Shown here piece after piece: positions 7,873 to 14,396 of a DNA stretch of 64,000 nucleotides; positions within the stretch are counted from its first letter, which is position 1, and every line of letters begins with the position of its first letter. The notes below the pieces were generated by a model that ran no database searches, was not told where the DNA came from, and saw only the letters and a list, made by a program, of their open reading frames with translations. The position numbers and the translations under genes are program-made. Source of the stretch: Planctomycetota bacterium (lineage in GTDB: Bacteria > Planctomycetota > UBA8108 > SXIK01); contig CBDCXR010000004.1 in the NCBI GenBank assembly GCA_965223845.1, positions 5,280,001 to 5,344,000 of the forward strand. Direction: 5' to 3'.

Positions 7873-9117
7873 TCAAAAGAGGAACGACGCGTCAAACGCG
7901 GCCGTCGTCTGCGTAAAGCGCGAACTGTTCTCGTAGATCCTCTCGTCGGCGATATCGACGCGAATCTCCCCACGGAGAAGGAGATTCTCGAACGGCTTCC
8001 ATCCGACGGTTGCCGTGGCGTCGAAGATCCGCAGATTAGGGTTCCCGAACGCCGCGCCGTCATGGTCGTCGAAATGCTCCAGACGTACGGCGGCGAACCA
8101 CGATTCACTCAGATCGTAGCGAGCTACGCCGGCGACCCCCCATAGATTCGAATATCCGCCCCCGGCTGAACCGGACTGGTCACTCTGCCAGTCCGCGTTC
8201 AGGAGAAACGTGAGCTTCGCGACCTTGAGCGAGGCAACGAGATCCACGAGGCTGCGGTAGTTCCCGGCGCTGGTTACCTCGCCCACGAAATAATTCGCGG
8301 TCAGGGCCGGCTCGAGGTCACCCCCTGGGGTCAACGTGACACTCGAGAGCCACACCGGGAAATTGCCTCCGCCGGAGGAGCCGACGTTTTGGTTCCCCCA
8401 ACCATTTACGATTCCCAGATAACCCGACAAGATTTCGTCGCCGCCCTCGGTCGAGAGAAGTGGAGCCGAAATCTTCGCTCCGGTATGCACGAACGGAATC
8501 GCGAAGCCAAAGAGGAGTGAGCGCGAAATCGAATCGTTGTACGGAGCGTCGATCAGCTCCGCTCCGGCGCTGGTGAGGAACTTCCCGAAAGTCAGCGTTG
8601 CACCACCGACGACGTCGACCTGATCGGGAACGCGAACCTGAACATTCGCCTCCAAGACATCGAGATCGTTGCCGCCGAACGCAATGTTTGGACTCTGCGT
8701 CGTCGCGCTGTCTTTTCCCGTCGTCGCCGCGAAGGAGAAACCGACGGGCGTAGACTCGTCCGGAGCGCGCGAGATGTAGAGTGCCGCGTTGTGCACGGTG
8801 AATTCGTTGTGGAAGACATCAAAAACGCGGAACGGGGTCTCCGGAAGAAGAGATCCTCCACGTTCCGCGCTATTGAAATTGTAAGCGTACGCAACGTTTA
8901 GATATCCGCCGATCTCGATCTCACGAAAAAGCTCCGCGATCCCCTGCGATCGCTCGGATTCATCGCTGAATTGGTCGCCGTCGGGCGAAGCAACGGCCGA
9001 ATCATCCAAACGAAACGGACCGGCCACTGCGTTCGGGGATGTACTGACAGCGGTCACGATCGCCATCACGATCGAAAGCGCTGCAGAACTACTGCTCTTC
9101 TGTTTGATGTCTGTCAT
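7873..9117 (-). CDS. Putative outer-membrane beta-barrel porin (DUF1597/BBP2-like)
   Basis: Signal peptide; GGYLNVAYAYNFN, GKFLTSAGAELID...N..ISRSLLF...PFVHTG, LLRGEIRVD; C-terminal Phe. Confidence 0.8.
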   Translation of the reverse strand: MTDIKQKSSSSAALSIVMAIVTAVSTSPNAVAGPFRLDDSAVASPDGDQFSDESERSQGIAELFREIEIGGYLNVAYAYNFNSAERGGSLLPETPFRVFDVFHNEFTVHNAALYISRAPDESTPVGFSFAATTGKDSATTQSPNIAFGGNDLDVLEANVQVRVPDQVDVVGGATLTFGKFLTSAGAELIDAPYNDSISRSLLFGFAIPFVHTGAKISAPLLSTEGGDEILSGYLGIVNGWGNQNVGSSGGGNFPVWLSSVTLTPGGDLEPALTANYFVGEVTSAGNYRSLVDLVASLKVAKLTFLLNADWQSDQSGSAGGGYSNLWGVAGVARYDLSESWFAAVRLEHFDDHDGAAFGNPNLRIFDATATVGWKPFENLLLRGEIRVDIADERIYENSSRFTQTTAAFDASFLF

Positions 9118-9338
9118 CTACACTCCCCCTGTCTTGTCCGACGAAGGGTACTGCCGACTCGAGATTCGACGTCCGGATCGAATCACTCGGGCGGGCTACC
9201 TCAGGTAGCTTCCACCGTCACTTTCGATGTTCGGCCGCGGTCCACCTCGCGCGGGATAGGGACATACCCTCGAGCGGACACGACTCGGAAGCGCCGTACA
9301 CACCTATGCGCACCGAGTCCAGCGCACGGTCCCGGCTC

Positions 9339-9376
9339 AAGAAAAAACCCATCGCGGCGCGGAACGTCGCGATGGG
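9339..9376 (-). terminator. Intrinsic terminator
   Basis: 12-bp near-perfect stem CCCATCGCGGCG/CGTCGCGATGGG preceded by AAAAAA on + (U-tract on -). Confidence 0.7.
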
Positions 9377-9556
9377 AGAGAGGGTCGCGCAGACTCAGAC
9401 GAAGCATCCACCATTCGGACGCGTCCGATGAGTCCGCCGAGACGCTGTGCACTCCACCTTTACTAAGGACGGAGGAATCGTCCGCGACTAGCCGACGGGT
9501 CGCAATAGGGAGGTATCCGTACGCGAGTGTCGACCTCACGCGAGTCGGAGCACGCG

Positions 9557-9596
9557 AAAAAAAATCGGCCGGCGAAGACTCGCGTCAACGCCGGCC
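9557..9596 (-). terminator. Intrinsic terminator
   Basis: Stem GGCCGGCG/CGCCGGCC preceded by A8 on + (U8 on -). Confidence 0.65.
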
Positions 9597-9601
9597 TCAA
9601 A

Positions 9602-9689
9602 TCTCCGAACCTCAACAGGATTCAGTTACGAGGATGCTGAAATCCGAGCGCACCTCGGAGGACGCTCGGTGTTGGGTTCAGTTCGGAGA
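9602..9689. ncRNA. Candidate structured cis-regulatory RNA or sRNA (three-way junction)
   Basis: Perfect 9-bp closing stem TCTCCGAAC/GTTCGGAGA encloses a second stem and two hairpins with complementary loops. Abuts a terminator. Confidence 0.4.
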
Positions 9690-10022
9690 AATCCCAAGTA
9701 GCTGCGTGGGAAATCGTGTACGCGACGGGTCCTACAGACGAGGCTCCGGTCGCAAAGGGCCTCATTCGGCGAAGCGATGCGTGCGCGCATTACTTCCGCG
9801 CTCGTCGCCCGCTGATTCCCACTCGGATTGTCGTCGACGGCGGGTAGCTCGAACCATAGGGAGTTTCCCCTACGAGCGGGCCTCCTCGGCTTCGTGCGTC
9901 ACGAGATTTCTTCGCGTGGCCGTGAAAACGGGCTACGCATCGCTGTGCCACAGCCGATACAACCGAACGGAATGATCAGCGACCGAGACACCCGAGGCGG
10001 GGCGAGTGGGTGGAGGTCAGTG

Positions 10023-13000
10023 GTGAGCGAGAGTCTCCGGACCGGGATACGATCACGATCGATTCAACGCATTGCCCTGCTCGCGTTGTTAGCTTTGGGC
10101 GTGTCTCATCCCGCAGCCGCTGACGGCCAACGGATCGCAATCGCGCGACCGGTGAGCGGGATTCTCGTCGACGGGGATCCGAGCGATTGGCCGTCGGACC
10201 TGCGGCGGTACCCCATCGCGAAAGCCGAGTTCGCGTCGCGGCCGCGGGACGAGATCGATTTTCGGGCGAGCTTTTCCGTCGGCTTCGATCCGTCCGAGAA
10301 CGCCCTCTACGTCCTCGTGCGGGTCCGCGACGACTCGACGGTGGTCTCCACCCACTGGCGCGACACCGACGGTTGCTCGATCTATCTCGGAACGGAGGCC
10401 GATCGCGAAGGCGAACGACGGATCGTGCAGTTTAACGCGTACGGTGATTACGACGACCGCGCCGTGACCGCGGTTCGCGATCAAGTCGCCGCCGCCGCGT
10501 GGAATCGCGGACCAGAGCAGCACGTATACGAGTGGCGATTCGACTGGAAAGCGCTCTTCGGCGACGGTCACGAACTCAAGGACGGTCGAAACGCCGGGTT
10601 TGACGTATCCGTATGCGATCGGGATCGAGACGACTCGTTCTCATGGATCGCCTGGACTCCAGGAATCCGAAAATCGGAAATACAAGGACGGATCGGTGAC
10701 CTCCTGTTCGCCTCTTCCGCTAGCGGGACCGGATGGATCGAGGGTCGAATCGACGCCGGATCTCTGCGAGGGCAACCTTTTGACCCGACTCTCATGGTAC
10801 GGCGCGAGCCGTTCGAATCCTCGCCGCGGATCACCATTCACGCCGACCGTCAGGGGCGGTTCCGTGCTGAACTGCCCGAAGGCCGTTACCAGATTTCTTC
10901 TCGGGCCGACCATCGCACCGAGCAGTGTGATGTCCGGGCCGGCAAGTCTACCGAGATCCAAGTTGGCCTACGCCCCGCTCCGGCTTATTCACGGTACTGC
11001 GCACGGGATCGAAAGAACATCGTGGGTCCCGGAAAGCACACCGCCTCTGGGTTTCATTTCGTTAGCCCAGACGAGCTCGGAGCCACGGAGGCAGGCGGCG
11101 TGTTTCAAGCCCGCAGCGGGGAACTATGGATCTACGGTTTTCGCGGCATAGCAAGTTTCGACGGCGAGTCATTCTACTTTTATGGCAGTCGCCTGCTCCC
11201 AAGGACGCCCGACACCGTCTCGGCGATCGACATGGTAGAGGATCTGACCGGTACGTTCTGGATCGCTGCCGAGGACGGGTTGTACCAGTTCCGAGAACAA
11301 GTCTTCACGTTCGTCTCTGGATCCCGCGGAATACGGGGCACGCTGCGGAAGCTGGTCGTTGGTGCAGACGGAACTCTCTGGGTCGGAACGGAATCGAGTG
11401 TCATCCGACTCTCCGACGGTCTTTTCGAGACCGTTGTTGACTGGAACCATCTCGACTACCGACTGTTGAGTTTCGCCGTCGCGCCAGACGACTCCATATG
11501 GATTGGCACCACGAACGGACTGCTTCACGTCGCCGAAGGAAGGACCGAGAGATTCACGAGCGCGGGCGGCCTCCCGAGCGACCGAGTCACCGATGTCGCG
11601 ATCGGGCACAGCGGGAAAAAACTGTGGATCGGGACGGACAAGGGTGTAGCGGTACGTGAAGAGGGAAAGTTCCGGGTCTGGCCGATCAACGCCCCCACGA
11701 GCACCGAGAAAGTATCGCGGATCGGGGTCCGGAGCCTCGTCGAGTCGCCGGACGGGCGTGTGTGGTTCACGTTCCGTAACCGCTCGCTGTGGGAGATCGG
11801 ACCGCACGGTCCAAATCGACTCTCAAATGAAGGCGCTCGAGGTCTGTGCATCGATCGAGAAGGAAATCTTTGGGTCGCGTCCGGTACCGTGCTGAGCCGA
11901 GTCGAACCTGAGCACTCGTCGAAGTTGACGACCTCGAAGATCTACGCAAGCGCGAGAGTTCGTTGTCTGATGCTGACGTCGAACGACACCGCGTGGATCG
12001 GCACAAACGCTCGAGGTCTCTTTCGCGAAGCCTCCGGCAGTGTCACGAACTGGACTACAAGCGATGGCCTTCCCCACAACGGCGTCGGCGCAATCCTCGA
12101 AGATTCTCACGGCGGCGTCTGGGTTGGCACGGCAGCGGGGCTAGCTCGCATCACACCGGACGGGAGCTTCTCGGCGTTCGCTCGAAACGACGAGCTCGTC
12201 GGACACAATGTGACGTGCCTTCTCGAGGATCGTCGCGGTCGAATCTGGATCGGTAGCATCTCTGGAGTCTCGATCTACGACGGAAACGGCGTATCGTCGC
12301 TGACTTCTCTCGATGGACTCCCTGACAACCATATTACCGATTTGTGCGAAGACGACAGGGGATCCGTGTGGATCGGGACCGTCCGCGGCACGGCGCGCTA
12401 CGATCCGATTCAAGATAGAGTCAGCTACGTCGCCGCTCGTAACACGCTCCCGAGGGTGGAATGCCTGTTTAGGCGTAGCGATGGCTCGCTTTGGCTCGGC
12501 GGAGCTGGCGGTTTATCTCGCTTCGATGGTAACAAGTGGACACGACTCGACATATTGCATGATCTCGATGTCGTCTTCGCGATCGCACAGATCGACGAGG
12601 CACGACTTTGCCTCGGGACGGCGAATGGCCTCGTACTCTACGACGGATTCGCAGCACAGCGGGTCACGATGCTAGACGGCCTTCTCCCTGGCAAAGTCGC
12701 GGCGCTCGCCACGCTTAGCGACAACTCCGTTCTCGTTGGGGCGAATCCGGGACTCAACCACTACTTCGCGCGGCCCGCTTCGCCTCCGATCAAGATCACG
12801 CGAGTATCGACGGTCGACGTCGGTGACACCACAAGTGTGGTCCGACTCGATCCATCGGAGTTTCCGTTCGAGATCGAATTCAGCTCGATCAGCTTCAAGA
12901 CTCGGCCAGGATCGCTCTTGTATCGCCACCGGCTCGTTGGGTTCGACGAGGAGTGGAAACTCTCGACCGAACCGCGCGTCGCTTATCGGCAAGTTCCACC

Positions 13001-14396
13001 TGGAACCTATCGGTTCGAGGTGCAAGCGATCGATCGCGATCTCGAATACTCCGACTCACCCGCTCAGGTTCAGATCCAGGTCGAGCCCGATTACGCGAGT
13101 CTCGCGCTTTGGATCGTCACGGCGAGTTCGGGTCTCTTGGCGATTTGGCTGGGCGTGCTTCTCGTGAGACGCGAGCGGAGCATCCGCCGAATGAATGTAG
13201 AGCTCGAAGACCGCGTCGAGAAAAGAACGACCGCTCTTCGCCGGGAGATCGAACACAGCGAGACGCTGCGCGAGCAGCTACTCCACACCCAGAAGCTCGA
13301 AGCGATCGGCACGCTCTCGGCGGGCGTGGCGCATGATTTCAACAACGTGCTCACGGCGATTCTCAACTACGTTCACCTCGTAGAGCTCAGCGAGGATCGA
13401 ACCCAGGTGACTCGCTGGATCGCTGGAATCCGAGATGCGGTCGAACAAGCCTCGGGAGTCACCAGCGCTTTGCTAACGTTTAGCCGAAAAACACCAACTC
13501 AGCGATCCAGTCAGCGACTGACACAAGTCGTCGCGGGGGCCTCGAGCTTGCTCGACCGATTGCTTCCGGCCTCGATCAATCTCCAAGTCGACTTCGCCGA
13601 GGAACATCCCATTTGGTGCCAAGTCGACGGCCCCCAGATACAGCAAGTCGTGGTGAATCTGTCTCTGAACGCACGCGATTCGATGGCCGACGGCGGTACG
13701 CTGACGATCGCCGTTCGTTCGTTCACCACTCAAGACGGTTCGAAACGTGCCTTGGTGATCGTTGAAGATACGGGGACCGGCATGTCCGAGAGTACGCGAG
13801 GACGCGTATTTGAACCTTTCTTCACGACGAAGGCACGTGGACGAGGAACCGGTATCGGCATGGCGATCGTCCACGGCATCATCTCCGACCACGACGGGAC
13901 GGTGAACGTGGAATCCGAGCTCGGAGTCGGCACCAAAGTGTCGATTGAGCTGCCGTGCTGTCCGCCGCCATCGGAATCGGAGTCGCTATCCGCCGACGGC
14001 ATCGAAGATCGGCACTCGCTCCGTACGATTCTTGTAGCGGAGGACGATTGGCACGTGCAGGAATCCGTGTGTCTCGCGCTTCAGAATCTCGGCTATTCCG
14101 TAGTCCGGGCCTCAGACGGACCGGAGGCCGTCGAATTCGTGCTCGCCCGACACAGCGAGTTGTCGGCGGTTGTGTTGGACGTCGACCTTCCTCGAATGAA
14201 CGGCTACGACTGTCTCCGTGCGATGCGTCGAGCCGTACCGAACCTTCCCGCCGTGATCGCGAGCAGCCTCAGAAGCTCCGAATCGATCTTCGAGCTCGGG
14301 TCCGCCACGGTGGCTCTCCCGAAGCCGTTCACCGTGATCCAGCTGGTCCGAGCGCTTGAAGAAGCATTGAAGGACGAGATCACCAGAGACCGCTGA
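10023..14396 (+). CDS. Hybrid sensor kinase: signal peptide, CBM9-like sugar-binding domain, Reg_prop beta-propellers, Y_Y_Y, TM, HisKA-HATPase-REC
   Basis: VDGDPSDW...LYVLVRVRDD (CBM9-like); repeated D..G.LWIGT..GL blades; YRHRLVG..GTYRFEVQA; AHDFNNVL; REC with VLDVDLPRMNG. GTG 10023 follows GGAGG; ATG 9972 is an alternative start. Confidence 0.9.
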   Translation: MSESLRTGIRSRSIQRIALLALLALGVSHPAAADGQRIAIARPVSGILVDGDPSDWPSDLRRYPIAKAEFASRPRDEIDFRASFSVGFDPSENALYVLVRVRDDSTVVSTHWRDTDGCSIYLGTEADREGERRIVQFNAYGDYDDRAVTAVRDQVAAAAWNRGPEQHVYEWRFDWKALFGDGHELKDGRNAGFDVSVCDRDRDDSFSWIAWTPGIRKSEIQGRIGDLLFASSASGTGWIEGRIDAGSLRGQPFDPTLMVRREPFESSPRITIHADRQGRFRAELPEGRYQISSRADHRTEQCDVRAGKSTEIQVGLRPAPAYSRYCARDRKNIVGPGKHTASGFHFVSPDELGATEAGGVFQARSGELWIYGFRGIASFDGESFYFYGSRLLPRTPDTVSAIDMVEDLTGTFWIAAEDGLYQFREQVFTFVSGSRGIRGTLRKLVVGADGTLWVGTESSVIRLSDGLFETVVDWNHLDYRLLSFAVAPDDSIWIGTTNGLLHVAEGRTERFTSAGGLPSDRVTDVAIGHSGKKLWIGTDKGVAVREEGKFRVWPINAPTSTEKVSRIGVRSLVESPDGRVWFTFRNRSLWEIGPHGPNRLSNEGARGLCIDREGNLWVASGTVLSRVEPEHSSKLTTSKIYASARVRCLMLTSNDTAWIGTNARGLFREASGSVTNWTTSDGLPHNGVGAILEDSHGGVWVGTAAGLARITPDGSFSAFARNDELVGHNVTCLLEDRRGRIWIGSISGVSIYDGNGVSSLTSLDGLPDNHITDLCEDDRGSVWIGTVRGTARYDPIQDRVSYVAARNTLPRVECLFRRSDGSLWLGGAGGLSRFDGNKWTRLDILHDLDVVFAIAQIDEARLCLGTANGLVLYDGFAAQRVTMLDGLLPGKVAALATLSDNSVLVGANPGLNHYFARPASPPIKITRVSTVDVGDTTSVVRLDPSEFPFEIEFSSISFKTRPGSLLYRHRLVGFDEEWKLSTEPRVAYRQVPPGTYRFEVQAIDRDLEYSDSPAQVQIQVEPDYASLALWIVTASSGLLAIWLGVLLVRRERSIRRMNVELEDRVEKRTTALRREIEHSETLREQLLHTQKLEAIGTLSAGVAHDFNNVLTAILNYVHLVELSEDRTQVTRWIAGIRDAVEQASGVTSALLTFSRKTPTQRSSQRLTQVVAGASSLLDRLLPASINLQVDFAEEHPIWCQVDGPQIQQVVVNLSLNARDSMADGGTLTIAVRSFTTQDGSKRALVIVEDTGTGMSESTRGRVFEPFFTTKARGRGTGIGMAIVHGIISDHDGTVNVESELGVGTKVSIELPCCPPPSESESLSADGIEDRHSLRTILVAEDDWHVQESVCLALQNLGYSVVRASDGPEAVEFVLARHSELSAVVLDVDLPRMNGYDCLRAMRRAVPNLPAVIASSLRSSESIFELGSATVALPKPFTVIQLVRALEEALKDEITRDR

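Follow-up and report, generated by a model that had tools for sequence, protein, structure and literature searches.

The staphylococcal Rsa RNAs and RoxS/RsaE are intergenic, trans-acting RNAs whose 3' end is an intrinsic terminator and whose C/U-rich loops pair with ribosome-binding sites. In a transcriptional riboswitch the sensor helix and the terminator must compete with each other, and the purine riboswitch class is characterized by long conserved joining strands. Cis-acting processive antitermination RNAs are represented by put of phage HK022 and EAR of Bacillus. To our knowledge, the regulatory RNAs of Planctomycetota are almost unexplored and hardly any RNA regulators are known in this phylum; the part of the literature reached by our search held nothing specific on planctomycete regulatory RNAs of the kind considered here.

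The element analyzed in this work is located in a window of 64,000 nt (the whole stretch of DNA under analysis) from a planctomycete whose genome has 7.9 Mb and 65.3% G+C, and contains only 59 runs of eight or more A or T. It lies in a gap of 905 nt (9118-10022) separating the divergent genes of a porin and a histidine kinase (Table 1). A preliminary description, made from the sequence alone, named it a candidate riboswitch or small RNA: the small RNA half of that title fits the two minus-strand terminators found in a divergent gap, whereas the riboswitch half has turned out to be unsupported. The reading that we tentatively adopt is that of one or two lineage-specific small RNAs which would be transcribed from the minus strand.

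Table 1 Features of the porin-kinase gap and its flanking genes (window coordinates)
Feature	Position	Strand	Description
BBP2 (OmpL-like) beta-barrel porin gene	7873..9117	-	Pfam PF07642, E 5.7e-53; downstream of the element
T2-to-porin-start-codon stretch	9118..9338	-	220 nt; ribosome-binding site GGGGGAG inside
Intrinsic terminator T2	9339..9376	-	9-bp stem, then U6
Inter-terminator segment	9377..9556	-	long imperfect hairpin, CCUCC-type words
Intrinsic terminator T1	9557..9596	-	8-bp all-GC stem and 3-bp inner stem, then U8
Three-way-junction domain (P1, P2, two hairpins)	9602..9689	- (strand from the terminators, not from the fold)	unique in the genome
Hybrid histidine kinase gene	10023..14396	+	1457 aa; CBM9, propeller repeats, Y_Y_Y, HisKA, HATPase, receiver; divergent

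The porin of the window is a diverged paralogue with 63% identity to the other copy in the host genome. That other copy (L025, G000:C4:2000980-2005077) and the closest orthologue (L018 in genome G003, 52%) are each immediately preceded by an ammonium-transporter gene (PF00909, E 1e-102 and 3.9e-47, respectively), so that the BBP2 porin family is probably tied to nitrogen uptake. The copy in the window has moved out of this context and is now placed among two-component genes. For the kinase, no orthologue was found in 20 other genomes of the order beyond one 30% match, and the locus is lineage-specific. Since the kinase gene, read from the + strand, bounds the intergenic region, the terminators have no gene upstream of them on the minus strand.

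Contigs from four DNA sequencing runs are identical to the window, besides one 87-nt fragment from another organism. The latter belongs to a 151-nt contig (run X5, labelled as a different organism) that is identical to 9199-9285, between T2 and the porin start, over 87 nt and then diverges fully; it may come from a strain in which the upstream part is arranged differently, or be an assembly artefact. Across the gap the word ATAGGGA-N-T-N-CC occurs three times (9256-9269, 9505-9518 and 9856-9869; repeats D1 and D2), with spacings of 249 and 351 nt and one copy in each sub-region; the copies may represent a protein-binding word or chance, as a triple 7-mer in 960 nt is not rare.

On the minus strand T1 is composed of GGCCGGCG..CGCCGGCC followed by U8 and T2 of CCCAUCGCG..CGCGAUGGG followed by U6, with hairpin energies of -23.4 and -18.9 kcal/mol, respectively. 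They are arranged in tandem, 217 nt apart, and the T1 stem forms with a pair probability of 0.99-1.0. Only 5 nt separate T1 from P1, the closing helix of the junction; this spacing and the porin ATG at 9117 agree with the preliminary description. Read on the + strand, both T1 and T2 consist of an A-tract and then a hairpin without a U-tract, and the T2 stem is longer there (12 bp, one G-U). A simpler terminator scan with a loop limit of 8 missed T1 and T2 because their loops are longer than 8.

The significance of such hairpins in this genome was assessed by a census of terminator-like sites, defined as hairpins no longer than 38 nt with an energy of -14 kcal/mol or lower and a run of T5 or more after them, with the genes called crudely (4668 on the main contig). 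The whole genome contains 81 compact strong sites, 27 of them inside ORFs (2.0 per Mb-strand) and 54 intergenic (20.6 per Mb-strand, ten times denser than in ORFs). The intergenic sites comprise 27 situated up to 300 nt after an ORF end, seven situated more than 300 nt after one, six that follow tRNA or tmRNA genes and 14 orphans with no same-strand gene upstream. The intergenic enrichment, together with the positions after ORF ends, tRNA and tmRNA genes, indicates that such sites are mostly genuine 3' ends in this genome. T1 and T2, as claimed for them earlier, are real intrinsic terminators of the minus strand; they are two of the 14 orphans, at least one of which follows, by eye, a gene missed by the caller. 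Same-strand pairs of terminators within 300 nt are found only twice in the genome, T1/T2 being one of them. As strong intrinsic terminators are so rare in this 65% GC genome, the dozen or so orphans make up a short list of candidate RNA genes, and the presence of genuine minus-strand terminators in a divergent gap implies short minus-strand transcripts.

The segment between the terminators, called a second structured segment in the preliminary description, does contain a long hairpin, yet folded alone it is not significantly structured (z -1.75, nine of 200 shuffles as good). It could be either the body of a second small RNA or a read-through extension of the first one. The T1 loop on the minus strand (ACGCGAGUC, 9577-9585) is a perfect complement of the 9-nt word GACUCGCGU (9538-9546; inverted repeat I6), which starts about 10 nt past the T1 U-tract and has a near copy, ACUCGCGU, 18 nt further on; this complementarity would be relevant only to read-through transcripts.

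All helices of the junction are present in the sequence at the coordinates given in the preliminary description. P1 is a perfect 9-bp helix of TCTCCGAAC (9602-9610) and GTTCGGAGA (9681-9689; inverted repeat I7), and P2 is formed by CTCAACA (9612-9618) and TGTTGGG (9670-9676) whose seven + strand pairs include a U-G that becomes an A-C mismatch on the minus strand. The two hairpins have the stems TTCAG/CTGAA (9621-9641) and CCGAGCG/CGCTCGG (9644-9669), and the strands joining the junction helices measure only 0, 2 and 3 nt. The loops expose CAUCCUCGUAA and UCCUCCGAGGUG on the minus strand and the GGA words UUACGAGGAUG and CUCGGAGGAC on the + strand. Their complementary words CGAGG (9629-9633) and CCTCG (9653-9657) were found as claimed; a 5-nt complement between loops of such size and composition arose in 3.5% of 20000 loop shuffles and is only suggestive; it also competes with a 3-bp extension within the larger loop. 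UUCAGUU occurs twice (9621-9627 and 9677-9683; repeat D3), which permits alternative pairing within the junction. The G+C content of the junction stretch is 0.526 versus 0.653 in the genome.

In RNAfold the three-way junction proposed earlier is both the minimum-energy and the centroid structure of the 96-nt + strand (-38.1 kcal/mol, z -3.48, none of 200 shuffles as good), and nearly the same fold is obtained for the minus strand (-35.4 kcal/mol, z -3.79, again none of 200); with flanks included the z-scores are -3.84 and -2.96, respectively. The wobbles favour the + strand, on which one U-G pair is gained in P2 and another in the TTCAG hairpin, both being A-C on the minus strand. On the minus strand P1 pairs with a probability of only 0.27-0.42 when the 5' flank is short; lengthening the flank raises it to 0.59-0.92.

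To allow for the choice of a best-looking spot in the preliminary description, a fold scan was made over the first 25 kb in 96-nt frames (1586 frame-strands with 14 mononucleotide shuffles each, hence noisy). The junction ranked fifth and the T2 frame (9345-9440, minus strand, z -5.2) second of 1586. Since three of the six best frames fall within coding sequence, a stable fold by itself does not prove function. The most extreme z-score of the scan, -5.6, belongs to 8801-8896 on the + strand. At 8825-8870 on the minus strand, roughly 250-290 nt from the start of the porin ORF, a strong hairpin of -24.4 kcal/mol is followed by TTTTTG; either a terminator-like site within the gene or a plain palindrome of coding sequence would account for it.

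The gap carries no coding signal: its ORFs reach at most 0.12 codon log-odds per codon versus 0.19-0.30 in the neighbouring genes, and Pfam yielded no match below E 0.1 for any of them. Readings as a pseudogene, a leader peptide or a gene for a small protein were dropped, as neither the codon log-odds nor Pfam gave any sign of them. Pattern scans for sigma-70, sigma-54 and ECF-like promoters produced no convincing promoter for a gap transcript on either strand, and the flanking porin and kinase genes are likewise without a recognised promoter; the tRNA genes of the host genome have clear promoters of the form TTGACN-N17-TAnnnT. The best candidate upstream of the junction, TTGCGA-N15-TAGGAC (approximately 9755-9729), was chosen by eye and is weak. 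A k-mer target scan of 4666 predicted start regions gave a similar excess over shuffles for the minus and plus strands. The search of the host genome for Hfq returned no gene, which removes the usual, though not required, chaperone.

The riboswitch proposal was confronted with the pairing of the nascent RNA and with the covariance models of known families. No mutually exclusive pairing of a junction helix and T1 was found (T1 stem probability 0.99-1.0): when the 3' arm of T1 was blocked, its 5' arm paired locally and not with the junction, and RNA folded up to the T1 loop formed no stable antiterminator. The joining strands of 0, 2 and 3 nt leave little space for a binding pocket. Rfam had no matches in the whole window at gathering scores, and at E values up to 10 the region 9100-10050 gave three chance-level matches to unrelated families, each far under its cut-off. 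The junction shape and the porin family's tie to nitrogen brought ribozymes (the hammerhead and other classes) and the glutamine riboswitch into consideration; all were rejected on the negative Rfam scans.

The element did not recur beside porin relatives either. The covariance model of the junction matched nothing at eight porin-relative loci, a strong same-strand terminator was found upstream of the porin match at only one of the nine loci scanned (L024, where its relation to the gene is unclear), and the loci of the paralogue and the G003 orthologue carry no such element. When the upstream regions of the three porin genes (window copy, paralogue and G003 orthologue) were aligned, no conserved block emerged. 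Taken with the Rfam result, the lack of an alternative pairing for T1 and the short junction strands, this tells against the riboswitch.

In wider BLAST searches the element matched only itself in the host genome and nothing in 40 relatives; 400 genomes of the phylum gave nothing relevant, with two chance matches on the T2 hairpin, and plasmids and phages likewise nothing relevant. The single-sequence covariance model of the junction (R1), which is insensitive to distant structural relatives, gave matches at chance level only, both in the host genome and across the order (21 genomes); across the class (59 genomes) the highest score, 27.9 bits, was likewise at chance level. This best match (in genome G024) was rejected, as it lies inside long ORFs of 71% GC and includes several non-canonical pairs. 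A locus search anchored on the porin protein found nothing in genome contigs and, in metagenome contigs, a single 35% relative. Restricted as it is to one genome, the element at present tells little about biology in general; the lack of conserved homologues, which the preliminary description itself had named as damaging to its proposal, counts against a riboswitch, and the probability of a true one is at most marginal.

The order of structured RNA, two terminators and a same-strand gene of transporter type, pointed out in the preliminary description, would also be expected if the porin mRNA had a long 5' leader, about 580 nt in length, initiated at one promoter upstream of the junction and equipped with two attenuators, so that porin expression would depend on regulated read-through of T1 and T2 by means of a ligand-binding junction, an RNA-binding antiterminator protein or a put/EAR-like RNA that makes the polymerase resistant to terminators. 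The 220 nt following T2, in which no separate porin promoter was recognised although there is room enough for one, are in keeping with such a leader, as are the loop-loop complement, somewhat unlikely by chance (P 0.035), and the alternative pairing that the second UUCAGUU copy allows within the junction. It is opposed by a T1 that pairs with a probability of about 1.0 and shares no alternative pairing with the junction, by the cramped joining strands, by the failure of Rfam to match even at E 10, and by comparative data: ammonium-transporter genes, with no such element, precede both the paralogue and the G003 orthologue, the junction is present at none of the eight porin-relative loci, a strong same-strand terminator lies upstream of the porin match at only one of nine, and no homologues were found. 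We regard the leader as unlikely, and its particular form in which the junction belongs to an undescribed class of cis-acting regulatory RNAs, either an orphan ligand sensor or a polymerase-modifying put/EAR-like element, governing read-through of the two terminators into the porin gene, as highly improbable.

It is similarly unlikely that the terminators are real and the junction has no function of its own, being a fortuitously stable fold in decaying non-coding DNA, with T1 and T2 as relics of a lost minus-strand gene or insulators shielding the porin from stray transcription. The lineage-specific character of the locus (a kinase with a 30% match at most in 20 genomes and a diverged porin paralogue), the comparable fold z-scores in coding sequence of the same window, and the searches that recognised no promoter and found no conservation all agree with this view; the undetectability of any protein-gene remnant, the locally low G+C content, the closeness of T1 and the perfect 9-bp closing helix speak against it. 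Transfer of the activity to the + strand, on which the junction would be part of a long 5' UTR of the kinase or a CsrA-binding small RNA, has in its favour a clean fold that is at once minimum-energy and centroid and holds two U-G pairs more, the kinase start located 333 nt downstream of the junction, and one loop that presumably resembles a high-affinity CsrA ligand. However, CsrA (PF02599) was not found in the host genome, which is 91.7% complete, while the controls were matched in three genomes; both terminators are oriented for the minus strand, and neither a promoter nor a convincing terminator was found for a + strand transcript. The CsrA-titrating alternative raised in the preliminary description is weakened accordingly, and we consider action on the + strand improbable.

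The reading to which we give the greatest attention, with somewhat less than even confidence, is that of one or two lineage-specific, terminator-ended small RNAs of the minus strand with UCCUC-type loops. The pair of terminators is the strongest evidence for it; the lack of coding signal in the gap and a junction fold more stable than all 200 shuffles on either strand also speak in its favour. As the upstream gene is on the other strand, an RNA ending at T1 has to start within the gap, and with the junction only 5 nt before T1 it would include the junction unless it started inside it; on these grounds we assign the element to the minus strand. The independence of T1 pairing from the junction is consistent with a free-standing RNA that carries its own terminator and not with a switch. 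Transcription would start at about 9700-9800, pass through the junction (9689-9602) and stop at T1 (9596-9557), acting as a strong constitutive terminator, to give an RNA of approximately 110-170 nt, and read-through of T1 or a second start would produce a longer form that extends to T2 (9376-9339). On this view the junction would constitute the RNA body and would not sense a ligand. Its hairpin loops, exposing UCCUC and UCCUCC, may pair with purine-rich ribosome-binding sites, so that base-pairing control of the translation of other mRNAs appears the likeliest activity. Evidence against the small RNA comes from the promoter scans, which recognised none, the homologue searches, which returned none, the wobbles and the longer T2 stem favouring the + strand, the low probability of P1 on the minus strand, the failure to find an Hfq gene and the target scan with no difference between strands. 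The candidate is plausible but ordinary, and unproven.

Other orphan terminators of the host genome look like small RNA units too. The only other strong same-strand pair within 300 nt (L039, G000:C4:6193778-6194469, minus strand) comprises two tandem units about 196 nt apart (C4:6193843/6194039) with similar preceding sequence and near-identical terminator hairpins, ACGCCCAGTTTTCTCAACCGAGAGAAC[C/T]GGGCGT followed by T5; it occupies a gap between divergent genes, with an unannotated ORF of 253 aa downstream, and looks like a duplicated small RNA gene. At a second locus (L038, G000:C4:6844603-6845098) the orphan terminator is preceded by TTGACG-N17-TACCCT, which predicts a C-rich RNA of about 55 nt, and at a third (L037, G000:C4:7099281-7099876) it follows a pyrimidine-rich stretch with CCCTCCTTTTTCCTC. 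Rfam, run for calibration on nine other orphan-terminator loci, these three included, gave nothing at E 0.01, and the genes downstream of six other such loci have no common theme.

If the transcript exists, it would be a terminator-ended small RNA encoded beside an outer-membrane porin and a sensor kinase in a planctomycete. Comparison with the described systems places the element at different distances from each of them. With CsrB, RsmY and RsmZ it shares GGA words in two hairpin loops of the + strand, but it differs from them in having two loop sites only, terminators on the opposite strand, no CsrA gene found in its host and no Rfam match. The likeness to put and EAR, a compact multi-hairpin RNA placed upstream of successive terminators and a downstream gene, is a pure analogy of layout; in contrast to the operons that put and EAR serve, there is no operon of that kind here, and Rfam was negative. 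The purine riboswitch (RF00167) similarly has a three-helix junction and distal loops with a 5-nt complement, whereas the element has joining strands of 0, 2 and 3 nt, an extra helix, P2, below the junction and a terminator uncoupled from P1, without an Rfam match or conservation. From the RNAs of the Rsa and RoxS type it is set apart by the lack of any sequence or Rfam relationship and of a recognised promoter, by its tandem terminators 217 nt apart, and by being known here as a candidate from its sequence; with these RNAs it has in common an intergenic position, a non-coding structured body directly before a strong terminator and pyrimidine words in the loops.
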